A DNA stretch of 64,000 nucleotides from a virus. A program made the translations under genes and the position numbers. This document shows, in pieces, positions 1 to 28,665 of the stretch; position 1 is the first letter of the stretch; each line of letters opens with the position of its first letter. The notes under the pieces were generated by a model. The model worked only from the letters and a program-made list of their open reading frames with translations. It ran no database searches and had not been told where the DNA came from. The DNA lies in the IMG/VR virus record IMGVR_UViG_3300017963_000220, positions 1-64,000 of that record. One strand, 5' to 3'.

Positions 1-123
1 CCTGGAGCCCGGCCCTGGAGCCCGGCCCTGGAGCCCGGCCCTGGAGCCCGGCCCTGGAGCCCGGCCCTGGAGCCCGGCCCTGGAGCCCGGCCCTGGAGCC
101 CGGCCCTGGAGCCCGGCCCTGGA
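1..123. repeat. 13-bp tandem repeat (CCTGGAGCCCGGC), 9 full copies plus 6 nt, truncated by window start
   Basis: The only T of the unit recurs at 3,16,29...120 (period 13). Copies are perfect; unique sequence starts at 124. Confidence 0.95.
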
Positions 124-125
124 AT

Positions 126-190
126 AAGGTTTGATTGGTATCAGATCAAAGCTAACCCTTTGATTTCATGGTTCAATTCCATGGTAGCCT
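126..190 (+). ncRNA. tRNA-like element TLS0 (weak closing stem)
   Basis: Hairpin TTTGAT-N9-ATCAAA (130-150). T-arm CATGG-TTCAATT-CCATG (167-183). Lies 19 nt upstream of GGAGG (209-213). Confidence 0.35.
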
Positions 191-218
191 ATCGGTGAAA
201 CACATATTGGAGGAAAAC

Positions 219-539
219 ATGGCCAAGCAAGAGACAACAGAGACCGTCGAACACGTCGAATTCACCAGGGTAGACGCAGGCGTTTACGCTGTTCCCCTCG
301 GTCAGCTCGTCAAGGACGACGACGGCTGTCGAGGGCACCTAGTCGAGATCGTGTACGCTGACTACACAGGTTTTCATGCCTGTGGGGTCGTCGTGGACCT
401 TTCCGACGACGTGGGCGAGCCGCTGTATCGGGCAGTCCGGTATAACAACTGGCTCGGCGCTGACGAAGATGATGTCAGCACGGCATACTACGACTCGTTG
501 GAGGACGCGGCGAGAGCCACCTATCCCGACGCAGCGTAG
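219..539 (+). CDS. hypothetical early protein
   Basis: ORF 168..539 trimmed to ATG219, 5 nt after GGAGG (209-213). Confidence 0.55.
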   Translation: MAKQETTETVEHVEFTRVDAGVYAVPLGQLVKDDDGCRGHLVEIVYADYTGFHACGVVVDLSDDVGEPLYRAVRYNNWLGADEDDVSTAYYDSLEDAARATYPDAA

Positions 540-554
540 TCGGTCTACATTCAA

Positions 555-618
555 GTCACGGCTCAAGGCGAGATCGCCCCGAAAGGGCGGCAGGTGGGTT
601 CGATTCCCACGCGTGGCG
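555..618 (+). ncRNA. tRNA-like element TLS1
   Basis: Closing stem GTCACG(555-560)/CGTGGC(612-617). Hairpin CGCCC-cgaaa-GGGCG (575-589). T-arm GTGGG-TTCGATT-CCCAC (594-610). Confidence 0.55.
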
Positions 619-639
619 CTAAGGTGAAATGGAGGACAA

Positions 640-1062
640 ATGAATAGTCAAGCATTGAACGCTGTTCTGGAATCTATGGAAGAACGGTGTGAATGGTGTG
701 GCAGTAAACACGTGTCGTTTGAGGCTTTGACAGGGGATACTTTGTGTACCTGCTGCCAGGGTTTAGCGACATGGCTTGTTGAGTCACTAGATGATGAGGC
801 ACTATTTTGTGGGCCTAATTCTCCTAGTGTATCGGCTTGTAGGGTCTTGGCAGAAGCCTTCCGTAGTTTGAATAAGGCTACTGGGTACCTGTCGAAGGAA
901 CTAAAAGCCCTGCTCGATGAGGAGTGTGACGGGGGTTTTGGGGAATTCGATCCTCATATGCCGCGCATAGCCCAGATTCACGCCGAGTACATGGATTCAA
1001 CATGGGATATCGTCCACGTAGACTGGCAAACTAAGACGGTCACATGGGGGCGTGTCTACTAG
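640..1062 (+). CDS. hypothetical Cys-rich (zinc-ribbon-like) protein
   Basis: GGAGG at 631-635. Contains CEWCG...CTCC cysteine pairs. Confidence 0.6.
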   Translation: MNSQALNAVLESMEERCEWCGSKHVSFEALTGDTLCTCCQGLATWLVESLDDEALFCGPNSPSVSACRVLAEAFRSLNKATGYLSKELKALLDEECDGGFGEFDPHMPRIAQIHAEYMDSTWDIVHVDWQTKTVTWGRVY

Positions 1063-1123
1063 ACTCGAATGGTAACCCCACGGGGGCAACCCCGTGGGGT
1101 GGGGGTCCGATTCCCTCACGAGT
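1063..1123 (+). ncRNA. tRNA-like element TLS2
   Basis: Closing stem ACTCG(1063-67)/CGAGT(1119-23). Perfect 10-bp hairpin with GCAA tetraloop (1076-1099). T-arm GGGGG-TCCGATT-CCCTC (1101-1117). Confidence 0.55.
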
Positions 1124-1146
1124 AATCGGTGAATAGGAGGATGCAA

Positions 1147-1473
1147 ATGAAAAAGCGTCACAAGGAGAATGATTACGAGATAATCGTCCGTGAGCGTGAG
1201 GTGGCAACCCTCGATGAGGAGCTACCTGATGATCTCGTCGATACCTTGAGAAAGGTTATCATCGAAGCAGTAACGTCTCACCCGGATTTCCAACCGGATG
1301 ACGACGAGATCTTGGAGACGCTCAAGGAGCACATGGAAGACGCCATCCAAGGCGCGTTTTCCGAGGCTATTGACGACACAGCAAAAGCTCTCTTTATCAA
1401 GAGAGGGCGTGTGGCGGATATGGCGCAAGGTGTCCTAACGGATGTCGTCGAGGATATGACGACGTACTGGTAG
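1147..1473 (+). CDS. hypothetical acidic protein
   Basis: ORF 1129..1473 trimmed to ATG1147, 6 nt after AGGAGG (1135-1140). Confidence 0.55.
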   Translation: MKKRHKENDYEIIVREREVATLDEELPDDLVDTLRKVIIEAVTSHPDFQPDDDEILETLKEHMEDAIQGAFSEAIDDTAKALFIKRGRVADMAQGVLTDVVEDMTTYW

Positions 1474-1492
1474 CAGTTTCCCTTACAGCGTG

Positions 1493-1556
1493 GCCACGGC
1501 TCGAGGCGAGATCGGCTCGAAAGGTCGGCAGGTGGGTTCGATTCCCACGCGTGGCT
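1493..1556 (+). ncRNA. tRNA-like element TLS3 (paralog of TLS1)
   Basis: GCCACG(1493-98)/CGTGGC(1550-55). Hairpin CGGCT-cgaaa-GGTCG (1513-27) keeps pairing relative to TLS1 through G-U wobbles. T-arm 1532-1548. Confidence 0.55.
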
Positions 1557-1580
1557 CTAAGGTGAAATGGAGGTAGAGAA

Positions 1581-1814
1581 ATGCCTTATCCCAAGCAGGT
1601 AAGGATGGTTTTCAGTGGTAATTTAGATATTGGGCTAATACTCGAGCAACTCAGGTACGCTGGTTGTTTGACGTATGACGCCGATTCTGAGGAGGGCAGA
1701 CTAACTTTAGTGGTCAATCCCCCTCGGGGTGTCAATATCAAAAGGTGGGCTAGTCAGACGGCAGAGCGACCTAAGTCGTTTGGTGTGGTTACTGAGATTA
1801 TCACTAATCTATGA
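1581..1814 (+). CDS. hypothetical protein
   Basis: ORF-track entry with GGAGG upstream (1569-1573). Confidence 0.5.
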   Translation: MPYPKQVRMVFSGNLDIGLILEQLRYAGCLTYDADSEEGRLTLVVNPPRGVNIKRWASQTAERPKSFGVVTEIITNL

Positions 1815-1817
1815 TTT

Positions 1818-1876
1818 GATCTGATGGAGATCACGGGGGGCCAGCAATGGCCCCCCGTGGGAGGTTCGATTCCTCT
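1818..1876 (+). ncRNA. tRNA-like element TLS4 (no clear closing stem)
   Basis: GATC-N7-GATC hairpin (1818-32). 12-bp hairpin with GCAA loop (1832-1859). T-arm GGAGG-TTCGATT-CCTCT (1860-1876). Confidence 0.45.
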
Positions 1877-1901
1877 ACAAGTCGCCGAAAGGAGGTAGCA
1901 T

Positions 1902-2168
1902 ATGGCTATCGTAAGAGACAAGAGGGTTGTGGAAACCAAAGATGACGGCATGAGCTTCAAGGCGTGGATGAGTATTATCAACGCCTTGGTAGGCAGGTTC
2001 TACGGCTGTTCGCTGTATGATCTCCCGGACATGATGTTTCGGGACGCATACGACGGTGGTGATTCACCGCTCGATTTCTTCAATGAGTACGTAGCAGAGG
2101 AGATCGAGTCCTCGGGCTTTGGCGATATCGTTGAGAATGTCGTATACAAGCCCAAGGAGGCAGCGTGA
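1902..2168 (+). CDS. hypothetical protein
   Basis: AAAGGAGG lies 6 nt upstream of the ATG. Confidence 0.6.
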   Translation: MAIVRDKRVVETKDDGMSFKAWMSIINALVGRFYGCSLYDLPDMMFRDAYDGGDSPLDFFNEYVAEEIESSGFGDIVENVVYKPKEAA

Positions 2169-2386
2169 TGGCTTGGCTAACAGTGGTTCCGGCCTATGGC
2201 CGAGATTACAAGTCGGCTAAGGCAGCCAAGGTGGATTGGGAGTCGGGAAAAGACTTTCAGATCGCCGACATCTCCAGCCCGGACAACGGCAGATACGTGT
2301 CAAAGAACGATCTCGAGGGGTCGAATATTGACACCGTAAAGGTCAGGTTCGGCAAGCTGGCGAAGGTTACCACGATCAAGGTCTAG
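2165..2386 (+). CDS. hypothetical protein
   Basis: GTGATG overlap with the upstream stop, suggesting translational coupling. Confidence 0.5.
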   Translation: MMAWLTVVPAYGRDYKSAKAAKVDWESGKDFQIADISSPDNGRYVSKNDLEGSNIDTVKVRFGKLAKVTTIKV

Positions 2387-2510
2387 TCCCCAATGGGGGA
2401 TGGCGCAAAAAACGGCTTAGGCTTCCGGGTCTAGTTCGGGGTCAGTATGACCCAAGGGCCTGTGCGCTCTCCTCCTTTCACCGAGGACTAGGCCCGAGAG
2501 TTTGAGCAGG

Positions 2511-2564
2511 GGCGGTGATGATCTGAAAAGGATCATATCAGGTTCGTGACCTGACCGTCCCGCC
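2511..2564 (+). ncRNA. tRNA-like element TLS5 (divergent T-arm)
   Basis: GGCGG(2511-15)/CCGCC(2560-64). GATC-N7-GATC hairpin (2518-2536). CAGGT-tcgtg-ACCTG (2539-53). Confidence 0.4.
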
Positions 2565-2580
2565 GGGAAAGGAGGGACAA

Positions 2581-2979
2581 ATGGAAATCAAGTCCTTCGA
2601 CAGCATGGAGGAGATGTTCGAGGAGCTGGATAACCAGCGAAAAGCCGCCGATGATCGTGTGGAGCCGTGGCAGAGGAAACTCAGACCGGGCGATTACGCG
2701 GTTAGGTGGTTTGAGGGCATTACCATCTACTCGGAAATCCTTCGACCGTCCTCTGAGGACAGAGCCTTATATAAACAGCCGCATATGAAGCATTTCAGGC
2801 TTACGCGGTCGTATTCGGTCGTCTGTCCAGAGGGGGAGATTGGTGACGTTCACGTCAGCACTTTCCATCACCTCTGTGACGCGAAACAGTGGGAACGAGC
2901 GGTTGAAAAGGGATTTCCGAGCGAGATGCAGGACGTATACTACGTCGTTCGTGGTGAATATCCTCCACATTCCTGTTAG
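2581..2979 (+). CDS. hypothetical protein
   Basis: AAAGGAGGG upstream of the ATG. Confidence 0.6.
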   Translation: MEIKSFDSMEEMFEELDNQRKAADDRVEPWQRKLRPGDYAVRWFEGITIYSEILRPSSEDRALYKQPHMKHFRLTRSYSVVCPEGEIGDVHVSTFHHLCDAKQWERAVEKGFPSEMQDVYYVVRGEYPPHSC

Positions 2980-3007
2980 ACAAAGCATGTATCATAGCTC
3001 TGGTGAG

Positions 3008-3038
3008 ACCCTACGGGGTAGCCGGGTCCGATTCCCGG
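3008..3038 (+). ncRNA. tRNA-like element TLS6 (hairpin plus T-arm only)
   Basis: ACCC-UACG-GGGT hairpin with a UNCG-type loop (3008-19). T-arm CCGGG-TCCGATT-CCCGG (3022-38). Confidence 0.4.
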
Positions 3039-3081
3039 CTGTGATGTGTCAGGGCGCACAGAAGCGCGAAAGGAGACTGAA

Positions 3082-3639
3082 ATGAAGCTGAAGATGGGTA
3101 GTAAGAAGGCAAAGAAGTCCAAGGCTAAAAAGCCTGAGGCTAAGAAGAAGCCAGAGGTTCAGCGGCGGAAGTCGAAGCGAGCAACGGCCCAAGGGCCGCT
3201 CTTTGAGCGGGCTCGAAAGGTTGATGACGCTCTCCAGGCAGCTATTGACTTGGTTACCTCGGTAGCCAATGAGATGGACACTTGGAGCGCCGCTGATGGC
3301 AACGCTTTACGCGAAGTCGCGAATTCTCCGGATTCTTCCATGTTCTGGGATCACACTATGCGTGAACTGGGGCGTGAGGTCTCGGGAACGGCTCTGTTGA
3401 AAGACGCAGCCACACAGGCTATCAAGCTGACGAATCAGTTGGTTTGGTACCAGTGGGCCTTCACCGCCGTGGCAGCGTATGACGCGGCGAAAGCGGCTCA
3501 GGCGGCGAAAGCGGCTCAGAAGCCCAAGAAGGCTCAGAAGCCCAAGAAGGCAAAGAAAGCCAAGGCCGGAAAGCCCTCCAAGAAAAAGCAACCCAAAAAG
3601 GCATCAAAACTCAACCTGAAGAAGAAAAAGAAAAAGTGA
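3082..3639 (+). CDS. Lys/Ala-rich basic protein with histone-H1-like tails
   Basis: ORF 3046.. trimmed to ATG3082 after AAAGGAG. N-terminus MKLKMGSKKAKKSKAKK. C-terminus is AKAAQ/KPKK repeats ending KKKKKK. Confidence 0.6.
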   Translation: MKLKMGSKKAKKSKAKKPEAKKKPEVQRRKSKRATAQGPLFERARKVDDALQAAIDLVTSVANEMDTWSAADGNALREVANSPDSSMFWDHTMRELGREVSGTALLKDAATQAIKLTNQLVWYQWAFTAVAAYDAAKAAQAAKAAQKPKKAQKPKKAKKAKAGKPSKKKQPKKASKLNLKKKKKK

Positions 3640-3648
3640 GTCCTGACA

Positions 3649-3697
3649 GCGTGTAGGGTGCAAGGCCCAATGGAGAGGTTCGATTCCTCTCCCACGC
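3649..3697 (+). ncRNA. tRNA-like element TLS7
   Basis: GCGTG(3649-53)/CACGC(3693-97). Small GCAA-loop hairpin. 7-bp T-arm GGAGAGG-TTCGATT-CCTCTCC (3672-92). Confidence 0.5.
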
Positions 3698-3742
3698 GCC
3701 GAGCCCCAATGGTGGGGCATTTACAAGTAGTAGGAGGAGAAT

Positions 3743-4207
3743 ATGGCCCGTAGGAAGAAGAACAAGAACTCCAAGAAGCAAGCTCCGCCCCCTCCCCCGC
3801 CTGAAGAGGTAGAGGAGGAAGAAGCAGAGGAAGAGGAGGAAGCTGAAGAGGAGGACGAGGAAGAGGCCGAAGACGAAGACGACGAAGCAGAAGAAGAGGA
3901 GGAAGAGGAGGAAGAAGAGCCTCCGCCCCCTCGGAAGAAGCATCGTGGGAAAGTCTGGATCGATGAGCTTCATCTCATCCACCACGACGGAGCACTCTAT
4001 CTCTCTACCGATCCCCTGGCGTTCATCAAGGAATCGCTGGGCGATGTGGAGCCAGCAGAGCTGAATGATCAGCTCGAGGAGTTCAAGGTCGCGAGGCTCG
4101 TGCAATGGGACGAGCTAGAGATCGAGGACGGGGACGAGCTGGAATTCGCAGATATCACTGATGTCTGTGATATCCAGTTCTCCGACTGGGATCTCTCCTG
4201 GAAGTAA
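3743..4207 (+). CDS. polyacidic protein (~55-residue Glu/Asp tract)
   Basis: AGGAGGAG upstream. N-terminus MARRKKNKNSKK, then a PPPPPP-EEVEEEE...EEEE-PPPP tract. Confidence 0.6.
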   Translation: MARRKKNKNSKKQAPPPPPPEEVEEEEAEEEEEAEEEDEEEAEDEDDEAEEEEEEEEEEPPPPRKKHRGKVWIDELHLIHHDGALYLSTDPLAFIKESLGDVEPAELNDQLEEFKVARLVQWDELEIEDGDELEFADITDVCDIQFSDWDLSWK

Positions 4208-4226
4208 GCACCTTATTCCCCCCACA

Positions 4227-4268
4227 GGGGGTGGGGTGATCGAAGTCAGATCACCCCACCCCCATTTT
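4227..4268 (+). terminator. rho-independent terminator built on a GATC-N7-GATC hairpin
   Basis: 15-bp stem GGGGGTGGGGTGATC / GATCACCCCACCCCC, 7-nt loop, then ATTTT. Confidence 0.7.
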
Positions 4269-4317
4269 AGCAGTGTTGGGTATTCAGGCCCATAGAGGTT
4301 CGATTCCTCTAAACGCT
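4269..4317 (+). ncRNA. tRNA-like element TLS8
   Basis: T-arm TAGAGG-TTCGATT-CCTCTA (4293-4311). Imperfect closing stem AGC..GTT/AACGCT. Follows the terminator at 4227-4268. Confidence 0.4.
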
Positions 4318-4332
4318 AGAAAGGAGGACAGC

Positions 4333-4731
4333 ATGTCCGATATCAAAATAAGCCCTAAACATGGGCTGAATCCGTCTGTAACGGTGTGTTTCTTCTGTGG
4401 CAAGAGCGTCGGCGTGGCGATCTGTGGTCACCTGAAAGGTGATCAGGAAGCCCCACGCACAATGATGTCTTATCCAGAGGAAGCCTGTGACGAGTGTAAG
4501 GATTGGATGACGAAGGGTATTTACCTGGTAGGCATCGATCCTGAGCGCTCCGACCCTAAGAAGGGTCTGAACGGTTTCTACCGCTCAGGGCAGTGTACTG
4601 TTGTCAGTGAAGAGGCGTTTCGTCGGTTGTTCGACGGAGGAGCTGAAGCCGTGAAGTTCGGCTTGAAGCATCGTTGGACCTTCATTGATGGGACTATGTT
4701 GGCCCAGATAATAGACGCATCGACAGACTAA
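4333..4731 (+). CDS. hypothetical zinc-ribbon protein
   Basis: ORF 4273.. trimmed to ATG4333 after AAAGGAGG. Contains CFFCG and CDEC pairs. Confidence 0.6.
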   Translation: MSDIKISPKHGLNPSVTVCFFCGKSVGVAICGHLKGDQEAPRTMMSYPEEACDECKDWMTKGIYLVGIDPERSDPKKGLNGFYRSGQCTVVSEEAFRRLFDGGAEAVKFGLKHRWTFIDGTMLAQIIDASTD

Positions 4732-4738
4732 CGTAATA

Positions 4739-4830
4739 GACCACGAGAGCGGACTAACCAACCGCTCATGGGAGCACACAATTTCAGGAGTCGTTGTGTG
4801 ATCGCTGGTTCAAATCCAGCCGTGGTCACC
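4739..4830 (+). ncRNA. tRNA-like element TLS9 (four-arm cloverleaf-like, non-canonical)
   Basis: 7-bp acceptor GACCACG(4739-45)/CGTGGTC(4821-27) followed by A-CC. D-like arm AGCGG-N9-CCGCT. 7-bp stem with 12-nt loop (4775-4800). T-arm GCTGG-TTCAAAT-CCAGC. Confidence 0.6.
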
Positions 4831-4844
4831 GAAAGGAGGGTGTG

Positions 4845-5327
4845 ATGGGCATCCATAATAAAAAGACTAACCGGGAGTTGTTGGAGTTGTACTTCGACAC
4901 GGCGGCACAGCTCGTCGAGGTACAAAAGGATCTGGACGTAATAATCCAAGAATTCCAAGAGCGTGGAATAGCACAGATTGACCTAACAGCTCCGAAAATC
5001 TTTGTGGGCAACAACGGTAAAGGTTCTTTGGTGTCTGAGGATACCGAGGCAGAGGTAGCTTGGAAAGAGCTACAGGACGCTCGAAAGCACCGATCCAAAA
5101 AGACCCTCAAGAATGGGAAGAATGGGCAACCTACATTCCGTGGTCGTGGAGATATCTCGAAGAACATCTACGATCTACTTAGCTCAGGCAGAGCTACAGG
5201 AAAGGAACTAGCCGCGACCCTCGAGCTTACCCCGAAACAGGTGAGCAATTCTTTGTCGCTACTCAAGCGGCGGGGCTTGGTGGAGAAGACGCCAGGCTTT
5301 GACAGAGTGTGGCAAGTTACTGAATGA
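4845..5327 (+). CDS. putative winged-helix DNA-binding protein
   Basis: ORF 4794.. trimmed to ATG4845 after AAAGGAGGG. C-terminus GKELAATLELTPKQVSNSLSLLKRRGLVEK looks MarR-like. Confidence 0.5.
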   Translation: MGIHNKKTNRELLELYFDTAAQLVEVQKDLDVIIQEFQERGIAQIDLTAPKIFVGNNGKGSLVSEDTEAEVAWKELQDARKHRSKKTLKNGKNGQPTFRGRGDISKNIYDLLSSGRATGKELAATLELTPKQVSNSLSLLKRRGLVEKTPGFDRVWQVTE

Positions 5328-5333
5328 GTGAAC

Positions 5334-5392
5334 GCCCTGGGTGATCCTACTCAGATCACTGTGAGCCAGGTTCGGACCTGGCCAGGGCACCA
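5334..5392 (+). ncRNA. tRNA-like element TLS10 (D-armless mini-tRNA shape with encoded ACCA)
   Basis: 7-bp acceptor GCCCTGG(5334-40)/CCAGGGC(5382-88). Anticodon-arm-like GTGATC-ctactca-GATCAC (5341-59). CCAGG-ttcgga-CCTGG (5366-81). Then A-CCA (5389-92). Confidence 0.65.
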
Positions 5393-5407
5393 TGAAAGGA
5401 GGGTATA

Positions 5408-5728
5408 ATGGCCCTTAGAGTGACGAATGTGGAGCACTTCCACAAGGTTCTGGAAGAGTTGGCTGAACAACCAGATTTCGACCAGCTACACAAGGCGTTC
5501 GAGAAGCAGGTGAAATACCTTCACCATTACAACCCAAAAATGTTCGATGTCGAGGTAGGCTACGACATGGCAAAATGGAGCTTCTCGATCTACTGGGTGA
5601 AGAAGGGTAAGAACGAAGTCTATATGAATGGCGGTCTTATCTACCACCCAGGTGCCCGTGAGGCTGACCGTTCGTTGTCGGTTGAGCTAAACTATGACAG
5701 TGAGCCGCATTGGAGTGTACACACATGA
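5408..5728 (+). CDS. hypothetical protein
   Basis: AAAGGAGGG upstream. Confidence 0.6.
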   Translation: MALRVTNVEHFHKVLEELAEQPDFDQLHKAFEKQVKYLHHYNPKMFDVEVGYDMAKWSFSIYWVKKGKNEVYMNGGLIYHPGAREADRSLSVELNYDSEPHWSVHT

Positions 5729-6009
5729 AGATCAAAGTGGGGACATACACAGCCGCCAAAGGTGAGAACTACGGCATGAACGCTTTGTACGTTCAAGCCG
5801 GAAGTCTGACGGTCTGGTTTAGCTACGATACTATCATAGCATTCCAAGATGGAGTGGAAGACCGCGTGGGTTTATCAAACCCAGCGGGGAGCACTACGGC
5901 AAAGCATCTTGGTCTGGTGTGTCCAGAGTATCGCCTGGCTCAAGACGATTTCGACAAAGCTCTACACGCCGCTTTTGACAAGCATGGTGTGTGGATAGAA
6001 AAGGATTGA
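5725..6009 (+). CDS. hypothetical protein
   Basis: ATGA overlap with the upstream stop (ATG5725 / TGA5726-28). Confidence 0.5.
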   Translation: MKIKVGTYTAAKGENYGMNALYVQAGSLTVWFSYDTIIAFQDGVEDRVGLSNPAGSTTAKHLGLVCPEYRLAQDDFDKALHAAFDKHGVWIEKD

Positions 6010-6012
6010 GTC

Positions 6013-6252
6013 ATGACGTATGGTCAGACGAGAAACATTCGTCTACTTGAGGATCGAACAAAGGAGATGGAATCTCACCTCGAGTTTCTCGAAGAGCAGA
6101 TTGAAGACTATGAAAGCTTGGTCTTCAAGCTGGCTAATTTCTATGACGTTCCACCAGACTTCAAGGCGGAAACCTATGGGCTGAACGCAGATGAGGCTGA
6201 GTACCTCTACTGTGTTCTAAACCCCGATCCTGAAATAGATGAGGAGGATTGA
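6013..6252 (+). CDS. hypothetical acidic protein
   Basis: Starts 3 nt after the previous stop. Confidence 0.5.
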   Translation: MTYGQTRNIRLLEDRTKEMESHLEFLEEQIEDYESLVFKLANFYDVPPDFKAETYGLNADEAEYLYCVLNPDPEIDEED

Positions 6253-6257
6253 AAGCA

Positions 6258-6304
6258 AGCGTAGCCAGAAGGTGGCTAGGCGGGTTCGACTCCCGCCTAC
6301 GCTA
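6258..6304 (+). ncRNA. tRNA-like element TLS11 (minimal)
   Basis: 7-bp acceptor AGCGTAG(6258-64)/CTACGCT(6297-6303). Short hairpin CCA-gaagg-TGG. T-arm GCGGG-TTCGACT-CCCGC (6280-96). Confidence 0.6.
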
Positions 6305-6319
6305 TAGATAGGAGGCCAA

Positions 6320-8053
6320 ATGGTACATATCAGAAGGCAGTCTGTATGGTGTTACATCGATATGGAACGAAGTAACCCTCGGGCAGTCAAATGGCTCCAT
6401 ATGGTCCTGACTATCTCTACACAAGCCTATGTTAGAGGCAAGCTAGAGTTCTACAAACTCCGGCTTTTCGATCTACGAAGAAAGCGCTTTCCCGCTGGGC
6501 TACTAGGCACAGCGTATAGGCGTTTGAAACGTAAAGGGTATGATGTACAGGTCATAGATGACCGACCTGATCCACCTAAGATCAAACCACTACCTAAGAG
6601 CTGCTCACACCTATATGACTACCAGAAGGCCGCCGTAAGGGCGTGTCTGAAGCGTAGACATGGCATCGTAAGGATCGCCACAGGTGGGGGTAAAACTGAA
6701 GTAGCGGTGGGCCTGGCAAGTCGGGTGAATTGTCCGACACTGTTTCTGGTCGATGAGCGCTCTCTGGTACAGCAAGCTCGAGAGCGTTGGGCCAAGATAA
6801 CAGGTAAGCCAGCCGGTATCATAGGAGAGGGCAGGTTTGAGCCTAACATGGAGTTCACAGTAGCCACGCTACAGACACTCCAACGACGGCTCAAGCGAGC
6901 AGATCCAGCGCTAGTCGCGTATCTACTCGAGGTAGGTTGTCTGATAGTAGACGAGGCGCACGTATTGGGCGCTAAGACCTACTACCGGACAGTCATGTCT
7001 ATCCCCAACGCATACTATCGTATTGGTCTATCAGCCACCCCCACGGGGCGGTCAGACCAGCGAGACGCTTATGTGATTGGGGCAATGGGACCTATCATCT
7101 ACAAAGCTACCATCGAAAAGTTGGTGGAACAGAAGAAGCTAGCAAAGGCTCTGGTGTTATTCTACCGATATCCTGGAGCGCTCAACCTGGAGGACTACTC
7201 AGCCAAGTGGCATCACTTGTACCTGATGGGTATGGTGAGAGAGGCCGCCAGGAATCGAGCTATCATCAGGATTTGCAAGATTACACCGAGGCCGATTCTG
7301 GTCTTCTTTGACAGGAAGGCACACGGGTGGATACTCAAGGATCTACTCGAGGAACAAGGCTACAATGTAGAAATAGTCTATGGCATCCATAAGGGAGAAG
7401 AACGACTCAAGCTGGCCCGTCAACTCGGGTCTGGCGAACTAGACGTATTGTTGGCATCAAAGGTTTTCAACAAGGGGGTGGACATCCCTGAGATTCGGTC
7501 GGCTGTGAACGCGGCTGGTTACAAAGCGGCGATCACATCCATGCAAAAGCTGGGACGACCAATGAGAGTCTCTGACGGTAAGGTGCAATTTGTGTACTGG
7601 GATACCGTTGATGACCACCATCCTACACTACTCCGACACTCGAGGTATCGAGCAAGGATCTATAAAAGAGAAGGTCTCGAGCTACGGCTTGTAGACTCTC
7701 TGAAAGAGGCCGTCGAAATACTGGGTGAGGTGGGCATGATTTACAAGGTTCCTTGGTACGCGCCAAGGGACTGGCTGGATCTAACCTACGAGGAGTTTGC
7801 AAATGGGTTGGGAACCGTGGTTGAGGACACAGGAGGAGAGGACAATGGCAGACGAGAAGAGGACATATCTCATCTCTCTAACGGATCGGGAATGCGCAGC
7901 GGTGCAAGAATTGGTCAGATACAGCCTCGATTCTCTCGCTGGGGTGGACAAAAACGACACCGTGGTAGAGAAATGGCGGAAGACCATCTTAGCCGTACAA
8001 GCAAAAGTCGACAACCCAAAGGTGGGGCTCGTTCAGGCGTCAGAAGCTCTTAG
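6320..8053 (+). CDS. SF2 DEAH-box DNA helicase
   Basis: Motif I ATGGGKTEVA, motif II IVDEAH, motif III LSATP, motif VI QKLGRPMR. TAGGAGG upstream. The last ~70 aa overlap the next gene out of frame. Confidence 0.85.
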   Translation: MVHIRRQSVWCYIDMERSNPRAVKWLHMVLTISTQAYVRGKLEFYKLRLFDLRRKRFPAGLLGTAYRRLKRKGYDVQVIDDRPDPPKIKPLPKSCSHLYDYQKAAVRACLKRRHGIVRIATGGGKTEVAVGLASRVNCPTLFLVDERSLVQQARERWAKITGKPAGIIGEGRFEPNMEFTVATLQTLQRRLKRADPALVAYLLEVGCLIVDEAHVLGAKTYYRTVMSIPNAYYRIGLSATPTGRSDQRDAYVIGAMGPIIYKATIEKLVEQKKLAKALVLFYRYPGALNLEDYSAKWHHLYLMGMVREAARNRAIIRICKITPRPILVFFDRKAHGWILKDLLEEQGYNVEIVYGIHKGEERLKLARQLGSGELDVLLASKVFNKGVDIPEIRSAVNAAGYKAAITSMQKLGRPMRVSDGKVQFVYWDTVDDHHPTLLRHSRYRARIYKREGLELRLVDSLKEAVEILGEVGMIYKVPWYAPRDWLDLTYEEFANGLGTVVEDTGGEDNGRREEDISHLSNGSGMRSGARIGQIQPRFSRWGGQKRHRGREMAEDHLSRTSKSRQPKGGARSGVRSS

Positions 8054-8183
8054 ACGCTCGTTACGGGCCTCAGACCATCTGGGCTTTTCCCGCGATTCTG
8101 AGGAGCTTAGGTGTCCAGAGTGCGGCCTCGAACGACATGAATCGCTTGAGGTCAAATGTCCTAATTGTGGCTACGTGGAGTAA
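7845..8183 (+). CDS. hypothetical protein with C-terminal zinc ribbon
   Basis: ORF 7797.. trimmed to ATG7845 after GGAGGAGAGG. Contains CPECG...CPNCG. Confidence 0.5.
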   Translation: MADEKRTYLISLTDRECAAVQELVRYSLDSLAGVDKNDTVVEKWRKTILAVQAKVDNPKVGLVQASEALRRSLRASDHLGFSRDSEELRCPECGLERHESLEVKCPNCGYVE

Positions 8184-8191
8184 GTAGCTGT

Positions 8192-8256
8192 AGCCCTGGG
8201 TCGCTGGTAGTGGTACAGCGCACTGTGAGCTGGGTTCGGCCCCAGTCAGGGCTCCG
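8192..8256 (+). ncRNA. tRNA-like element TLS12
   Basis: AGCCCTG(8192-98)/CAGGGCT(8247-53). Hairpin CGCTG-N9-CAGCG (8202-20). CTGGG-ttcggc-CCCAG (8230-45). Confidence 0.6.
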
Positions 8257-8270
8257 AAAGGAGGGCTAGT

Positions 8271-8489
8271 ATGGAAGCAGCCCAGTGTAAGCTTATGGCA
8301 CAGTTTATATCGTCATTCTTCTGTCTTCTAACGAAGAACGATGGCAGGAGTATTGAGTATGTAATTACGTACTTTCGCGACGAATTTGTTCCAGATAAGC
8401 ATAAGGCGTTGTGGGATAACACATTTCTGGCGGTTTGTGATTCCGAAGGTGTGGAGTTCTATCCTAGGAGGGTAGAAAATGGCAAGTAA
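8271..8489 (+). CDS. hypothetical protein
   Basis: AAAGGAGGG upstream. Confidence 0.5.
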   Translation: MEAAQCKLMAQFISSFFCLLTKNDGRSIEYVITYFRDEFVPDKHKALWDNTFLAVCDSEGVEFYPRRVENGK

Positions 8490-8679
8490 CAAACCTGAGG
8501 CTATCAGGGAGTGGGCTATACAGGCTCTTTCCAGATCGCTGATATCTCCAGAAGAGCACGTGAAGCTTTTGAAAGCCGCTAAGGAAGTGATCCAAGATGG
8601 TGGCTTCAGGGGTGATGTGTGTGACAGATGGAGGAGCATGGGTTACGGCTCTGACAAGATCGAGGATTTCTATCCGTAG
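8479..8679 (+). CDS. hypothetical protein
   Basis: 11-nt overlap with the upstream ORF; AGGAGGG at 8465-8471. Confidence 0.45.
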   Translation: MASNKPEAIREWAIQALSRSLISPEEHVKLLKAAKEVIQDGGFRGDVCDRWRSMGYGSDKIEDFYP

Positions 8680-8684
8680 ACGTT

Positions 8685-8744
8685 AGCCCTGGGTGATCTG
8701 AGCAAGATCACTGTGAGCTGGGTTCGGCCCCAGTCAGGGCTCCG
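8685..8744 (+). ncRNA. tRNA-like element TLS13 (paralog of TLS10 and TLS12)
   Basis: AGCCCTG(8685-91)/CAGGGCT(8735-41). GATC-N7-GATC arm (8693-8711). Same tgtga linker and T-arm as TLS12. Confidence 0.65.
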
Positions 8745-8756
8745 AAAGGAGGAACA

Positions 8757-8984
8757 ATGCCCAAATATGTTTCCGTATCCTTCTACAAGGATGGGAAAAT
8801 GAGGACATATTCGAGATGTATGTTGAAGCAGGACGCTCAGGAAGTTGTAAAACAATTTATCCGAGATGGTGTTTCTGCTGGTACAGCCGAATTATCTCCA
8901 GCGAGGATACGTGAGCCCGACGAGTGGTCTTATGTATCCTTTCACAGGCGAGGCGGCAGAGGTGGTCCAGTACCATTTCCGTAA
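8757..8984 (+). CDS. hypothetical protein
   Basis: AAAGGAGG upstream. Confidence 0.5.
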   Translation: MPKYVSVSFYKDGKMRTYSRCMLKQDAQEVVKQFIRDGVSAGTAELSPARIREPDEWSYVSFHRRGGRGGPVPFP

Positions 8985-9118
8985 CCGACTCCCCCTCCCC
9001 CGTACCCCCTCCCCCACCCTAGACTACCCCCCTAAAGGGGGGTAGCTCTAGGGTGTGTGGGTGGAGGAGCAAAGATATACCCGAAAGTTTTTTATAAAAA
9101 ATTTTTCTAAGAGATAAC

Positions 9119-9142
9119 CTCTAGGATAGGGTATAGGGGGTG
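9119..9142 (+). promoter_or_regulatory. conserved CTAGGATAGG-type motif, copy 1
   Basis: CTCTAGGATAGGGTATAGGGGG, upstream of the dnaB-like gene. Confidence 0.4.
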
Positions 9143-9211
9143 ACTGGAGATTCCAGAATGATCTAAGCAAGATCATTAGAAAGGAGGGAAAACCTGCAAG
9201 AAAAGTATGGT

Positions 9212-10807
9212 TTGAATTCTGAGTTTCTCCTGAGACTATTGAGTCTAACGTTATCAGATCACGGCTTCGGGCTAAGAGTGGTCGAGGCACTCGATCCGGA
9301 CCTGATTACTTATGAAGCTCTCGGATTGGTTTTTTCTGTTTTACAGGGATATGCAAGAAAAGAGGGGTCTATACCAGACCGAGCCACTTTTCAGCAACTT
9401 TTATTACAGAGACATCATTCTGGAGCTGTATCAGGCTCGGTGTATAAAAAGGCAAGAAAGGCTTACAAAAGAGCCTTTCGGGAAGAGCCCCTATCCAGGG
9501 AGGACGCTAAGGTCGTCTTGACGGACGCAATCCTTGACGTAGAAACATTGGCGGCGCTAGATGACGGCTATAAGCTGTACAAAGACCGCAAATATGATGA
9601 TGTCTACTCGAGGATGGAGGACGCTCAAGCTCGGACAAGGCTTTTAGACCTGGGGTCGTTGGGAGCATCATTCCGAAGGGAAAAAGATGAGTACATCGAG
9701 GAGCTGAGATCTGGGGAATCCAAAGTTGATCGGATTCCGATTGGCGTGGACGTGTTTGATAAGTGCATCAAAGGCGGACTAGGCCGAGGTGAGCTGGGTT
9801 GTGTCCTGGCTCCTGAGAAAGACGGTAAATCCATGGCACTAAATCACATCGCCGCGACAGCGGTGTTGTGTGGGCTGAAGGTAGTCTATATTTCAGCGGA
9901 GTTAGGCAAGACTATACTCCGACATCGGTACACAGCTAATCTGACTGGGCTCACGGTAGACGCGTTGGAAGAGGGAGGCGATAAAATCGCTGACCTAGCA
10001 GACGAACGCCTAGAACGAATCTTCGACCGGACGGGAGGGGATTGTGTGTTCAAGGTGTTTCCATCGAAAGCCGCAACGGTAAGGGACATAGAAGCGTATC
10101 TACGAGACCTTCAGCGCCTCTGGGGCTATAAGCCGGATGTGTTGATAGTCGACTACGCAGATGAGTTAGCTTCTGGGGCTCGTAACCTTGACAGTTCGTC
10201 AACGTACTTGACTCTAGGGCAAATCTATTCCGAGCTAAGGGCTTTGGGGGCTCCCCCCGAAGACTCGAGCGGTGTAAAAGGCGGTTTCAACTGTGCAGTT
10301 TGGACCGCCTCACAAGTCCAGCGTAACGCCATTGGGAACGAGGTATTGGAGTTCAAGGATGTAGCGGACTCCATCCTCAAGGTAGCAAAGGTTGACCTCA
10401 TGGTCAGTCTTTGTCGTAACGAGGAGGAGCGTGAGGTTGACGTGGTACGTTTGTACGTATCGGCCTGTAGGTACGCTAAGTTCCCACAGGAAGTGGGACC
10501 TTTCGCTCGGGACTACGCACATGGGCGGCTTGTCTTATTTGACAGGAACGCCCGAAGGTTTGAGGAAGGGACATGGCAACAGCAAAGAAAACAAAGGCTA
10601 CGAAAAAGACAACCACCAAATCAACAGCCAAGAAGAAAGTCGGAACCAAGGCAATCGCTAAGGAACCCGTCAAGGAACCAGTTGTGGCTCCCGAAACCGA
10701 GTTGGCCAGTACCAAGGTCGACAAAGGTGATAACGGAGCCTCCAACAAACCCATCAGCAAGGATACTTTCCATCGCGATGGGGGCTGGAAGTCCTACGAA
10801 CTGGTAG
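9212..10807 (+). CDS. DnaB-family replicative helicase
   Basis: Walker A LAPEKDGKSMAL, Walker B VLIVDYADE, DnaB-like N-terminal domain. Start uncertain (TTG9212 or CTG9194). The ~80-aa basic tail overlaps the next gene. Confidence 0.7.
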   Translation: MNSEFLLRLLSLTLSDHGFGLRVVEALDPDLITYEALGLVFSVLQGYARKEGSIPDRATFQQLLLQRHHSGAVSGSVYKKARKAYKRAFREEPLSREDAKVVLTDAILDVETLAALDDGYKLYKDRKYDDVYSRMEDAQARTRLLDLGSLGASFRREKDEYIEELRSGESKVDRIPIGVDVFDKCIKGGLGRGELGCVLAPEKDGKSMALNHIAATAVLCGLKVVYISAELGKTILRHRYTANLTGLTVDALEEGGDKIADLADERLERIFDRTGGDCVFKVFPSKAATVRDIEAYLRDLQRLWGYKPDVLIVDYADELASGARNLDSSSTYLTLGQIYSELRALGAPPEDSSGVKGGFNCAVWTASQVQRNAIGNEVLEFKDVADSILKVAKVDLMVSLCRNEEEREVDVVRLYVSACRYAKFPQEVGPFARDYAHGRLVLFDRNARRFEEGTWQQQRKQRLRKRQPPNQQPRRKSEPRQSLRNPSRNQLWLPKPSWPVPRSTKVITEPPTNPSARILSIAMGAGSPTNW

Positions 10808-11175
10808 CCGACGCAACACGTAGGTTCAAGAATCCGATGGGTCGTGACGTGACAGTCAAGGCCGAGCTTCGGATTCCGGACGGACGTAGCTTCCTTCGGG
10901 TAGCAGTCGGAAGGACCGATGATCGGAGTCCAATTGGGCTATCACGACAAGTATTCTTCGAGGATCTCCCCTTCGCCATTGAGGCACTCATCGACGTGTA
11001 CGAAGCCGGTAAGGAAAAGTACATTGAGCTTGAGACTGGGCGGATTCGCCGCAGCATCGAACGCGGACTCGACGAGGTGGAGTCTGTAGTCTCCCATAAT
11101 CGGGAGGACTGGTCAGGCAAGCTGATGACTATCAAAAAGGATATGTTGGGTCAACTTCCTGATGTGGAGTCATGA
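10573..11175 (+). CDS. hypothetical protein with Lys/Thr-rich N-terminus
   Basis: GAGGAAGGG upstream. N-terminus MATAKKTKATKKTTTKSTAKKK. Confidence 0.55.
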   Translation: MATAKKTKATKKTTTKSTAKKKVGTKAIAKEPVKEPVVAPETELASTKVDKGDNGASNKPISKDTFHRDGGWKSYELVADATRRFKNPMGRDVTVKAELRIPDGRSFLRVAVGRTDDRSPIGLSRQVFFEDLPFAIEALIDVYEAGKEKYIELETGRIRRSIERGLDEVESVVSHNREDWSGKLMTIKKDMLGQLPDVES

Positions 11176-12011
11176 CGGAGAGCTATCTTCGTAAAAAGTG
11201 TCCGTTCTGTTACAAGAACGTAGGCTCTGTGGGTTCACGAGAGAACGTCGCTATTGACCTTGGCAAAGGTGTGTACTTCTGTTGGCGCTGTGGGGCGTCA
11301 GGACGATTGAACAAATGGGCAGCTAAACAGCTAGATGTTCCAGAGTCCTATGGCTACGTTAGTGATCTGGATCAGATCATGTCAGACGAGCCTGTGAGGA
11401 AGGTATCGCAGTCCTCCTATCCGGAGGGCTATGTACCCCTCTACCCCTGGCGAGAAGTCAAGAGGAGTATAGTCCTACGACGGTACGTCAAGTACCTGAC
11501 TAAAAGGCATGTGACGCCCAAGCTCATGTCACAGTTCAAGCTTGGCGTTGTTCTGGACCCACCTAAAGAGCACTGGTATATGAGGGGTAACCTCATCTAT
11601 CCAGTACTTGACGGTGATAGAAAAGGCTATATCCGTAGACGCATAGACCGTGACGGTTACTTCAACTCACGTGGGCTTGGCCGGGAGGACGCTTTCTATA
11701 ACGGGCGTATTCTCAAGAAGGCAAAGCGTGTGTACGTGGTGGAAGGGCCTCATGATGTGTTGTCGATGGGTCTAGCTGGTTTGGGTACACTGGGAACCAG
11801 TGTTACAGACAAGCAACTCATACGTCTAGCTCACTTTCCTGGTGAGGTCATCTGGACCATGGACGGTGACGCCTGGAGGGTGTCAATGGTTCTGGCAAGA
11901 AGACTTCTTCTCCGAGGTAAACACTCGGGTTGGGTTAGAGTACCCCCTGGGCGCGACCCCGGTAAGCTGGGATTTGAGAAGGTAGCTTCACTCGACGTGC
12001 GCTATCTGTAG
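11172..12011 (+). CDS. DNA primase (zinc finger plus TOPRIM)
   Basis: CPFC...CWRCG zinc finger. TOPRIM VYVVEGPHDVLS and MDGDAW. ATGA overlap with the upstream gene. Confidence 0.75.
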   Translation: MTESYLRKKCPFCYKNVGSVGSRENVAIDLGKGVYFCWRCGASGRLNKWAAKQLDVPESYGYVSDLDQIMSDEPVRKVSQSSYPEGYVPLYPWREVKRSIVLRRYVKYLTKRHVTPKLMSQFKLGVVLDPPKEHWYMRGNLIYPVLDGDRKGYIRRRIDRDGYFNSRGLGREDAFYNGRILKKAKRVYVVEGPHDVLSMGLAGLGTLGTSVTDKQLIRLAHFPGEVIWTMDGDAWRVSMVLARRLLLRGKHSGWVRVPPGRDPGKLGFEKVASLDVRYL

Positions 12012-12172: not shown

Positions 12173-12862
12173 ATGCCGAAGAAGAAGAACGCGAAGTCGG
12201 AAGCTGCACAGGTCGCTGAGGAATCGGCGGCTCTCTATGAGGCCCTGATGGGACAGTACGAGGGGCTTTATGAGACTGGCGGGAAGGTCGCAGACCATCG
12301 AGTGGTCTTGACTACCCAGAGCGCCACGTCTCGCGCTTTCCAACTCCTGATTTCTGACTTGACCGCCGAAGAGGTAGTCGCCTGTCTCTCCGCCATCGGA
12401 GTCAACCTCGCAGAGGAGGACGAAGAGGAGGAAGAGGAAGAGGCTGAGGCCGAAGAGGAGGAAGAGGAGGACGAAGAGGAGGAAGAGGAAGAAGAAGAGG
12501 AAGAAGAAGAGGCAGAGGACGACGACGAGGAAGAGGACGAGGAAGAAGAAGAGGACGAGGAGGACGACGACGAGGAGGAAGAAGAAGAGGAAGAAGAGGA
12601 CGAGGAGGAAGAGGACGACGAGGAAGAAGAGGAAGAGGACGACGAGGCAGAGATCGAACTCAAGGCTGGGACCTTGAAGAAGATCAAGAAAGCCAAGTCC
12701 GCTGACGCAGTGGCCAAGATGGTTTTGGCCGATATCGACATCGATGATGAAGATCTGTTGACGGCTGTCCTCGTCGAGCTTCGTGACGGAAAGGTGGCCC
12801 CCGCGCTCAAGGGTAAGAAAGAGGGCGGGCTCAAGAAGGTCGCCAAGAAGGCACTGAAGTAA
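12173..12862 (+). CDS. polyacidic protein (~110 consecutive Glu/Asp/Ala)
   Basis: AAGGAGGG upstream. N-terminus MPKKKNAKSE. The E/D run spans ~12415-12650. Followed by a strong terminator. Confidence 0.65.
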   Translation: MPKKKNAKSEAAQVAEESAALYEALMGQYEGLYETGGKVADHRVVLTTQSATSRAFQLLISDLTAEEVVACLSAIGVNLAEEDEEEEEEEAEAEEEEEEDEEEEEEEEEEEEEAEDDDEEEDEEEEEDEEDDDEEEEEEEEEDEEEEDDEEEEEEDDEAEIELKAGTLKKIKKAKSADAVAKMVLADIDIDDEDLLTAVLVELRDGKVAPALKGKKEGGLKKVAKKALK

Positions 12863-28657: not shown

Positions 28658-28665
28658 GAGGCGAG

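Follow-up and report, generated by a model that had tools for sequence, protein, structure and literature searches.

Fourteen tRNA-like elements occupy the first 9 kb of a 64,000-nucleotide (nt) stretch of viral DNA (IMG/VR record IMGVR_UViG_3300017963_000220, positions 1 to 64,000; this whole stretch is referred to here as the window). A descriptor scan and folding showed that they share one plan, in which an acceptor stem encloses one or two inner hairpins and a T arm, the latter directly adjoining the 3′ acceptor strand. One of them, TLS10, had been described in an original prediction as a D-armless mini-tRNA with an encoded CCA end that could be matured, CCA repaired, or even charged. That prediction overlooked the arrangement as a whole, in which TLS10 forms one unit of a system that punctuates the genes one by one, and the array together with its conservation is the interesting result. 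Comparative evidence shows that TLS10 is a genuine conserved RNA fold under selection, with a tRNA-type stack of acceptor and T arm. The spacers most likely act as RNA-processing or stability signals rather than as working mini-tRNAs. More specifically, we consider the chances evenly balanced that the 14 D-armless spacers punctuate an early polycistronic RNA, with cuts by the host RNase P separating its cistrons.

The window represents a tailed-phage genome (terminase, portal, family A DNA polymerase, helicases, RecA, and ThyX) with all genes on the plus strand. Each of the 13 early gene junctions longer than 60 nt holds one element, and the first gene has another in its leader; where no element separates two genes, these overlap or abut (−11 to +3 nt). 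Among the 13 elements preceded by a gene, 11 start 0 to 19 nt past the upstream stop codon. The distance from the end of an element to the next start codon is 15 to 45 nt (15 to 28 nt in 12 of 14), and the elements stand directly before a strong Shine-Dalgarno sequence. We infer that the region is transcribed as a single RNA. A simple descriptor retrieved 11 distinct plus-strand elements, all within positions 1 to 9000; elsewhere in the window and in shuffled sequences, it gave scattered weak matches (about 6 raw matches per 64 kb). Beyond 9 kb, where the genes are tightly packed, neither the descriptor nor a covariance model detected an element in the window. We count as evidence for punctuation that there is one element per junction, that overlapping genes have none, and that the array is restricted to the early region. 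A promoter role, considered by analogy with the intergenic repeats of halovirus HF2 (PMC8707807), was rejected, as the early spacers are GC rich and contain no sigma-70-like promoter. A terminator role was likewise rejected for TLS10 and its family, since 13 of the 14 elements have no U-tract directly behind them; in the element at 3651 to 3697, the tail has a short hairpin and then TTT.

TLS10 (GCCCTGG-GTGATC-CTACTCA-GATCAC-TGTGAG-CCAGG-TTCGGA-CCTGG-CCAGGGC-ACCA) is located between a stop codon 6 nt upstream and a start codon 19 nt downstream of its acceptor stem, and the extended Shine-Dalgarno sequence GAAAGGAGGG begins two nt past its CCA. The mismatch-free 7-bp acceptor stem, the hairpin, the T arm, and the A-CCA end at 5389 to 5392 were all found exactly where they had been predicted (Table 1). 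The linker behind the hairpin is also present, although it reads TGTGAG and thus comprises 6 nt instead of the 5 that had been written out. RNAfold returned the three-helix fold at −30.4 kcal/mol, with 64% of the ensemble and a z score of −3.06, and 2 of 200 shuffled sequences folded equally well. The element is identical in L007, L008, and L009, which are three independent assemblies of the same phage.

Relatives were obtained through a helicase search of metagenomic sequences, and their contigs were then analyzed. Arrays of the same type were found in relatives with 50 to 81% helicase identity. L130 (81%) carries orthologs of two TLS10 paralogs, TLS12 and TLS13; L001 (62%, 87.8-kb contig) has about 13 elements at early junctions, mostly with an N-C-C/T-A tail followed by GTGAAAGGAG; L129 (58%, NCBI assembly GCA_030606965.1) contains five TLS10-type copies; and L004 (50%) has two tRNA-like elements ending in ACCA. 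TLS10, TLS12, TLS13, and the L129 and L130 copies were aligned with elements from three further contigs (L140, L164, and L169) to give an alignment of 12 homologs. The last three had been chosen with a filter on T-stem and acceptor pairing and are therefore not fully independent, while the nine others belong to the phage group.

In this alignment, 94% of the cells were paired, compared to 23 to 50% when the partners were slid, and both sides had changed in 13 of 18 pairs. The covariation score of 0.612 (0.24 in shuffles) was reached by none of 500 shuffles. Compensatory changes, such as C3-G70 to U-A or the T stems CCAGG/CCTGG, CTGGG/CCCAG, and CCCGG/CCGGG, also affected all three helices when the nine phage-group sequences were taken by themselves. 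The acceptor stem varied on both sides in five of its seven pairs, with G1-C72 invariant; all six basal pairs of the hairpin covaried; and the T-like stem was paired in 100% of the cells, two of its five pairs varying on both sides. The resulting plan comprises a 7-bp acceptor stem, a hairpin, the TGTGAG linker, a 5-bp stem with a 6-nt TTCRRN loop, and the 3′ acceptor strand. The TGTGAG columns are invariant in all 12 sequences, of which only the nine from the phage group count as evidence, as L140, L164, and L169 were retrieved by a pattern that included this motif; one weaker member of the subfamily, found later, has CGTAAG instead. A covariance model built from the alignment (R1) matched exactly three copies in the 64-kb window, with E values of 1e-11 to 1e-14. 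These are its own training sequences, so the search excludes further copies but does not constitute independent detection.

The same picture emerged from the wider family. The acceptor and T stems of 28 curated elements comprise 306 Watson-Crick pairs, 20 G·U pairs, and 3 A·C pairs, and the excess of G·U over A·C shows that the structure is selected in the sense-strand RNA. G1-C72 is present in 19 of the 28, and T-loops of the TTCRANN type are likewise found in 19. The TTCGGA loop of TLS10 lacks one nt compared with TTCGANT, the loop that the 11 other window elements have.

The tails behind the acceptor stem form a further trait of the family. Positions 74 to 76 of the 28 curated elements read CCA in nine, CCG in nine, CTA in five, and something else in five. 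About 0.5 CCA among 28 would be expected from base composition; paralogs are not independent in this count, and CCA recurs in four lineages. All five TLS10-type copies of L129 end in ACCA, while half of the tails in the window are CCG or other. For the latter, the original prediction had correctly quoted ACCG after 4827 and TCCG after 8252 and 8740. The ribosome-binding motif (G)TGAAAGGAGG follows most elements of the window and of L001, and the tails merge into it. The ACCA-TGAAAGGAGG of TLS10 matches the NCCA-GTGAAAGGAG of L001, and the NCC-GAAAGGAGG tails of the window look like versions of these two types that are shorter by 3 nt. Because CCA, CCG, and CTA are mixed and such shorter tails occur, the conserved portion is N73-C74-C75 and not A76. 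Recognition or antirecognition by processing enzymes therefore fits better than aminoacylation, which needs the terminal A76.

The central hairpin of TLS10 had been taken for an anticodon arm because of its 7-nt loop with T at the 33-equivalent position. This assignment did not withstand a comparison with the rest of the genome. Positions 5342 to 5358 are an exact copy of a 17-bp palindrome, TGATC-N7-GATCA, and consequently the stem and the 7-nt loop are dictated by it. The window contains 31 exact copies and 53 copies with at most one mismatch (3.1 ± 1.7 expected), and GATC-N7-GATC is by far the commonest GATC spacing, with 44 occurrences. Sixteen copies lie inside coding regions, six of them providing the TGA stop codon of a gene; others are found in five tRNA-like elements, at the tip of a terminator-like hairpin (4229 to 4260), and before a ribosome-binding site (9159 to 9175). 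The relatives L001, L004, L129, and L132 contain 9, 8, 10, and 5 copies, respectively. The consensus TGATC-K-GANTC-A-GATCA combines two GATC sites with a central GANTC and is not fully symmetric (position 6 is T or G, and position 12 is mostly A). The palindrome is probably a site that functions at the DNA level. In paralogs and orthologs of TLS10, the hairpin ranges from 4 to 13 bp with loops of 4 to 9 nt, the extremes being 4 bp with a 4-nt loop in L169 and 12 to 13 bp with a 5-nt loop in L129. TLS12 has an unrelated hairpin sequence with a 9-nt loop, and the TLS13 loop TGAGCAA lacks U33, with G at the equivalent position. As hairpin length, loop, and U33 all vary among homologs, no decoding function is under selection. 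The hairpin would thus represent a variable slot without a tRNA function, which in TLS10 is filled by a copy of the palindrome.

The genome further encodes a 7-deazaguanine module (25331 to 30373), which is probably DNA modifying, and an MT-A70 methyltransferase. The palindrome might be bound or modified by proteins of the module or by the methyltransferase. In the UGUGAG linker, the invariant UGU resembles, at the level of sequence, the recognition triplet of bacterial TGT.

Comparison with established RNA classes placed TLS10 closest to tRNA mimics at gene boundaries. Its acceptor/T portion resembles that of a canonical tRNA, with a 7-bp stem directly on a 5-bp T stem, a discriminator base, and CCA. 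The T-loop differs from the canonical 7-nt T54-T55-C56-R57-A58-N-N, since it has 6 nt and G in place of A58. A conserved anticodon arm (5-bp stem, 7-nt loop, U33, and purine 37) is absent from TLS10 and its homologs; the stem of TLS10 has 6 bp, and its 37-equivalent is the pyrimidine C. The proposed analogy with D-armless mitochondrial tRNAs was not supported, as no D-replacement loop is present, with 0 nt between the acceptor 5′ strand and the hairpin, and as ARAGORN in its metazoan-mitochondrial mode (-mt) did not call TLS10 at the default threshold. Aminoacylatable viral tRNA-like structures and the transfer-messenger RNA (tmRNA) domain are also poor counterparts: the element is internal to a DNA-phage operon, its 3:70 pair is C-G and not G3:U70, its position −1 is C and its position 73 is A, and Rfam gave no tmRNA match at TLS10. 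Whereas RNase III sites of the T7 type are double-stranded RNA hairpins of about 20 bp or more, the longest helix that RNAfold predicts in TLS10 is 7 bp and lies inside a three-way junction. What TLS10 shares with t-elements and mascRNA-type RNAs is its location, i.e., an acceptor/T mimic at a gene boundary inside an inferred longer transcript.

The tRNA detectors gave a similar result. ARAGORN found no tRNA genes in the window and none in positions 1 to 9500 even with the -ps option. When -mt and -ps were combined, TLS10 was called, among 36 mostly spurious calls in 9.5 kb. At an 80% threshold, eight other elements were called, including the paralogs at 8193 and 8686, and TLS10 was not. Rfam reported nothing at gathering scores in the window and nothing that overlapped 5334 to 5392 at an E value of ≤10; two other array elements reached about 20 bits with tRNA-Sec. 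The view of TLS10 as the strongest tRNA candidate of the array therefore holds for its encoded CCA only, as its T-loop and detector score are among the least tRNA-like. The broader suggestion that it could be matured, repaired, or charged was only partly supported; the conserved fold and ACCA as a family trait stood, the assignment of an anticodon arm did not, and the detectors gave no meaningful call. It is plausible that tRNA end-processing and CCA-repair enzymes would accept TLS10 as a substrate.

A minihelix of acceptor and T arm, a T-like loop, G1-C72, and an N-CC tail are determinants for bacterial RNase P as well as for 3′-end and CCA-repair enzymes. An acceptor/T-arm minihelix is all that RNase P requires, its P15 loop pairs with the RCCA tail, and in Bacillus CC in an encoded tail acts as an antideterminant for RNase Z. 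We propose RNase P cleavage because the 12-bp acceptor/T minihelix, the T-like loop, G1-C72, and N73-C74-C75 are conserved. In the proposed mechanism, the host RNase P would cut at the 5′ side of each element and thereby separate the cistrons. The downstream mRNA might then retain the element as a structured 5′ cap beside the 9-nt Shine-Dalgarno sequence, or 3′ trimming might release it as a small RNA of about 59 nt with a CCA end. Either outcome would yield defined, stable, and independently translated early mRNAs. Pfam and PHROGs scans of about 60 proteins encoded in the window revealed no RNase P, RNase Z, CCA-adding enzyme, or RNA ligase; the phage genome continues for about 31 kb beyond the window. 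The tRNA islands of phages would be a plausible evolutionary source of the elements, as genuine islands show the same layout of a tRNA-CCA followed by the ribosome-binding site of a small open reading frame (ORF).

Several observations weigh against this reading. The 6-nt T-loop of TLS10 may not form the canonical T-loop elbow, and about a quarter of the tails deviate from C-C/T-R. A pair between N-1 and N73 is possible in TLS12 and TLS13, and such a pair usually disfavors correct cleavage by RNase P. Furthermore, most early junctions of L004 carry a long bulged hairpin repeat of about 70 nt without a T-loop. Because these non-tRNA-like hairpins are used at the same junctions, the selected property may be a stable structure before the ribosome-binding site and not recognition by RNase P. 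The mix in L004 suggests interchangeable kinds of intercistronic structure.

The main rival to punctuation by cleavage is accordingly an uncleaved cis-acting leader, which would insulate the cistrons and stabilize the 5′ untranslated region, keep the Shine-Dalgarno sequence single stranded, and block interference from the upstream cistron, its tRNA-like shape being a historical trace of the tRNA genes of an island. The fixed place just upstream of a very strong ribosome-binding site, the L004 repeats, and a T-loop length of either 6 or 7 nt all suit such a leader. It does not account, however, for the preserved 7+5-bp register, the high frequency of G1-C72, or the persistence across lineages of an unpaired N-CC-R tail, including the uniform ACCA of L129, and we regard it as unlikely, though with appreciable weight. 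A rather improbable alternative is that the array is excised as D-armless, CCA-ended mimics of about 55 to 60 nt (about 59 nt for TLS10) that act in trans while the cuts create the early mRNAs. Such RNAs could be decoys or sponges for host immunity factors, toxins, or enzymes that target tRNA acceptor ends, or they could be CCA repaired or even aminoacylated without decoding, similar to the tRNA-like domain of tmRNA or the tRNA-like structures of plant viruses. The encoded ACCA, the perfect acceptor stem with its discriminator base, the many copies per genome in the earliest transcribed region, and the occurrence of the TLS10-type motif also as single copies in unrelated phage contigs would agree with this. 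On the other hand, the window tails that do not end in CCA would need trimming and CCA addition, TLS10 has neither G3:U70 nor a −1G:C73 identity element, the closest studied analogs (plant t-elements) are CCA tailed yet uncharged, and a role in cis is suggested by how strictly the elements are coupled to ribosome-binding sites.

The remaining explanations carry far less weight. That TLS10 decodes on the ribosome as a functional D-armless mini-tRNA is barely conceivable. Its 7-nt loop with T at the 33-equivalent position, its 7-bp acceptor stem, and ACCA would allow it, but loop and stem come from a palindrome that recurs throughout the window, and the comparative data on the hairpin, the T-loop, and position 37 contradict it along with ARAGORN (bacterial and default mitochondrial modes) and Rfam. 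Decoding was ruled out because the hairpin is not conserved in stem length, loop size, or U33, the T-loop has 6 nt, position 37 is C, and a D-replacement loop is missing. We consider it very improbable that the elements are decaying tRNA-gene relics or selfish intergenic repeats without a present function. They do resemble phage tRNA islands, and the near-identical L129 copies suggest duplication or gene conversion; nevertheless, compensatory substitutions maintain three helices across lineages with 50 to 81% helicase identity, an element stands at every junction at a constant spacing to the ribosome-binding site, and the bias toward G·U over A·C points to selection on RNA. An element acting at the DNA level, i.e., a protein-binding site, an attP-like tRNA fragment, or a linker for the shuffling of gene cassettes, is also highly doubtful. 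The palindrome in the central hairpin is found in coding DNA as well, and repeated spacers could promote the exchange of modules, but the acceptor and T stems tolerate G·U and not A·C, which indicates strand-specific RNA, and they covary instead of conserving their sequence. An attP fragment is further opposed by the presence of 14 copies, each with its own complete, complementary 5′ acceptor strand, and no integrase was found among the about 60 window proteins scanned.

The phage group is distant from cultivated phages. Megablast of window positions 1 to 12000 against GenBank phages gave no match, scans of IMG/VR with helicase peptides and with a strict TLS10 pattern also gave none, and the family A DNA polymerase is at most about 27 to 32% identical to that of any phage isolate. 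This polymerase has an N-terminal domain of the uracil-DNA-glycosylase superfamily, and the same fusion occurs in L002, L004, and L129. Weaker R1 matches in L001 comprised the positional ortholog of TLS10, with a 7-nt T-loop and a GCTA tail, and an element ending in ACCA (Table 1). A broader TLS10 pattern matched 88 loci in metagenome and genome collections, nearly all of them single chance matches; the full fold was present only in L140 (two copies), L164, and L169/L223. These unrelated contigs (57 to 66% GC) again carry the element between small genes, with an acceptor stem, a short hairpin, UGUGAG, and a 6-nt T-like loop, and L223, a 47-kb IMG/VR contig with 66% GC, additionally has three ordinary tRNAs. 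By these matches, the TLS10-type motif is distributed more widely than this phage group, and it is absent from Rfam. A generic pattern (T arm, CCR, and AAAGGAG) retrieved mostly ordinary tRNAs of phage tRNA islands and no homologs. In many large IMG/VR phages, genuine tRNA genes alternate with small ORFs, the CCA being 2 to 10 nt before the Shine-Dalgarno sequence of the ORF; in such islands, the 5′ ends of mRNAs may generally be set by the 3′ processing of tRNAs.

Both borders of the array have features of their own. Directly upstream of the first element lies a GC-rich tandem repeat that is also found at that place in L001 and L004. The repeat units in the three lineages are CCTGGAGCCCGGC (9.5 copies), TGGCCCC (29 copies), and GAGCCCTGGCGT (8 copies), and all three include GCCC(C)TGG, the 5′ acceptor strand of TLS10, TLS12, and TLS13. 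The copy number varies between assemblies of one phage (9.5 in the window versus about 2.5 in L007). The array ends at a long C-rich/G-rich palindrome (…CTACCCCCCCTAAAGGGGGGTAG…), behind which come an AT-rich stretch and a further copy of TGATC-N7-GATCA; in L129, the long palindrome at this place is much larger (about 300 bp). This region is probably a terminator together with the promoter region of the middle genes. Several early proteins contain extreme low-complexity tracts, namely, lysine-rich KKAKK repeats and long Glu/Asp runs.

Table 1. Coordinates of TLS10, the array, and associated features (window positions unless a contig is named)
Feature	Position	Strand	Details
TLS10 acceptor stem, 5′ strand GCCCTGG	5334..5340	+	7 Watson-Crick pairs with CCAGGGC 5382-5388
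TLS10 central hairpin	5341..5359	+	GTGATC 5341-5346, loop CTACTCA 5347-5353, GATCAC 5354-5359
TLS10 linker TGTGAG	5360..5365	+	6 nt
TLS10 T-like arm	5366..5381	+	CCAGG 5366-5370, 6-nt loop TTCGGA 5371-5376, CCTGG 5377-5381
TLS10 acceptor stem, 3′ strand CCAGGGC	5382..5388	+	Adjoins T stem with 0 gap, 7+5-bp coaxial stack
TLS10 discriminator A and encoded CCA	5389..5392	+	
Extended Shine-Dalgarno GAAAGGAGGG and ATG (5408) of downstream 106-aa gene	5394..5410	+	
Upstream gene, 160-aa winged-helix protein	4845..5327	+	TGA stop 6 nt before TLS10
14-element array	125..8744	+	Descriptor scan with shuffles, folds, gene positions
Array elements 1-5 (approximate)	127-190, 555-617, 1063-1124, 1493-1555, 1813-1883	+	
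Array elements 6-10 (approximate)	2509-2561, 2991-3045, 3651-3697, 4272-4317, 4739-4827	+	
Array elements 11-14 (approximate)	5334-5388 (TLS10), 6258-6303, 8193-8252, 8686-8740	+	
Model R1 copies in window	5334-5392, 8193-8256, 8686-8744	+	Covariance model
TLS12, TLS10 paralog	8193..8256	+	Different hairpin sequence, tail TCCG
TLS13, TLS10 paralog	8686..8744	+	Hairpin is palindrome copy 8694-8710, tail TCCG
L001 weaker R1 matches	8765-8822, 13400-13449		TLS10 positional ortholog; element ending in ACCA
L004 spacers with tRNA-like elements	4779-4913, 5430-5569		Elements end in ACCA
L004 long hairpin repeats	6248-6345, 7043-7140, 7351-7442, 7979-8072		
TLS10-type elements, L140	3686-3739, 4259-4315		Unrelated contig
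TLS10-type element, L164	191-243	-	Unrelated contig
TLS10-type element, L169 = L223	33-84 (L169) = 3051-3102 (L223)		Unrelated contig
Example palindrome starts, 1-20 kb	1817, 2519, 4237, 5342, 8694, 9159, 19363		Exact
Example palindrome starts, >20 kb	27885, 33784, 35296, 42951, 52135, 58779		Exact
QueD/PTPS	25331-25693		
TGT/DpdA-like transglycosylase	25690-26685		phrog_887
ParB-like protein	26682-27503		
Radical-SAM QueE-like protein	27959-28657		
FolE2 GTP cyclohydrolase	29849-30373		
MT-A70 methyltransferase	33800-34372		
Family A DNA polymerase	12929-15490		
Tandem repeat	1-123; L007 about 3772-3795; L001 5304-5501; L004 about 3990-4085		
Array-end region	8985-9210; L001 13470-13660; L129 6364-7075		
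Early proteins with low-complexity tracts	3082-3639, 3743-4207, 12173-12862		
tRNA-island loci, IMG/VR			L012, L034, L053, L074, L084, L092, L104, L117, L123

The principles involved are known from other systems, namely, tRNA-like processing signals from mitochondria and MALAT1 and the intercistronic processing of phage early RNA from T7. In the literature searched, we found no description of such arrays in phages, and Rfam 15 contains no matching family. If host tRNA-processing enzymes cut the elements, the early genes of this phage group would be expressed by mitochondrion-style "tRNA punctuation," which, in the literature searched, is not known to have been reported for phages; the known phage precedent is the RNase III sites of T7. 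It would also reveal how phage tRNA islands can be stripped of decoding while the processing signal alone is retained, and it would provide natural, small, and portable insulator and processing parts for synthetic operons. Should this lineage have turned tRNA genes into mimics that are excised and act in trans, these would constitute the first armless class of tRNA-like RNAs described in prokaryotic viruses and, together with the cuts, their first tRNA-punctuation system. The compact motif (acceptor stem, free hairpin slot, UGUGAG, and 6-nt T-like loop; about 50 to 67 nt) is new to Rfam, and annotators should keep in mind that a tRNA-like shape with CCA is not necessarily a tRNA when it occurs in a phage genome.

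In animal mitochondria, according to the Ojala-Montoya-Attardi model, tRNAs between genes are excised by tRNA-processing enzymes, which yields the mRNAs. The phage array is similar in having one tRNA-shaped unit per gene pair and almost no other spacer. The mitochondrial marks, however, are functional tRNAs, whereas the window is without an ARAGORN tRNA and the inner hairpin is no anticodon arm. The t-elements of plant mitochondria are RNase P/Z signals at mRNA ends (PMC1920247) and are CCA tailed and base modified but not aminoacylated (bioRxiv 10.1101/2024.09.09.612099); their cleavage by RNase P and RNase Z and their recognition by the CCA-adding enzyme have been proposed or shown. Like them, the phage elements are tRNA-like structures beside protein-coding genes and no decoders, with the marking of mRNA ends established for t-elements. 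The t-elements are recognizable full-cloverleaf homologs of tRNAs, few and scattered, and have no encoded CCA, while the phage elements lack a D arm, have a variable hairpin, often encode N-CC-R, and occupy every operon junction. The mascRNA of MALAT1 and its MEN-beta counterpart are tRNA mimics of about 60 nt in a long transcript that are released by RNase P and then RNase Z, receive CCA, and stay uncharged. TLS10 is a mimic of about the same size, with cleavage known for mascRNA only; the difference in setting is that mascRNA and MEN-beta RNA are eukaryotic, nuclear, and single copy, form a cloverleaf with a small D arm, and are not coupled to a ribosome-binding site.

The M3 RNA of phage phi80 and the C4 antisense RNA of phages P1/P7 are listed, together with operon mRNAs, as non-tRNA substrates that RNase P cleaves (PMC11143913). 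The likeness lies in small phage RNAs that are cut by the host RNase P at an acceptor-like stem, which for the elements described here is a proposal only. M3 and C4 are single regulatory RNAs that form no intercistronic array and show no such T-arm mimicry. Maturation of C4 depends on a 3′ CCA-like tail. Phage tRNA islands, such as the tRNA regions of T4 and T5 with their interspersed small ORFs, resemble the array in that a tRNA-shaped unit alternates with a small ORF and places CCA a few nt before the Shine-Dalgarno sequence. Their units are canonical tRNAs with anticodons by ARAGORN, and this phage lineage has none such. In the early genes of T7, as described by Dunn and Studier, RNase III cuts at intercistronic sites to give stable monocistronic mRNAs, and the array likewise places structured intercistronic signals in a phage early operon. 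The T7 sites are long imperfect double-stranded RNA hairpins, which the long hairpin repeats of L004 resemble more than TLS10 does, whereas TLS10 consists of three short helices with the acceptor/T geometry of a tRNA.

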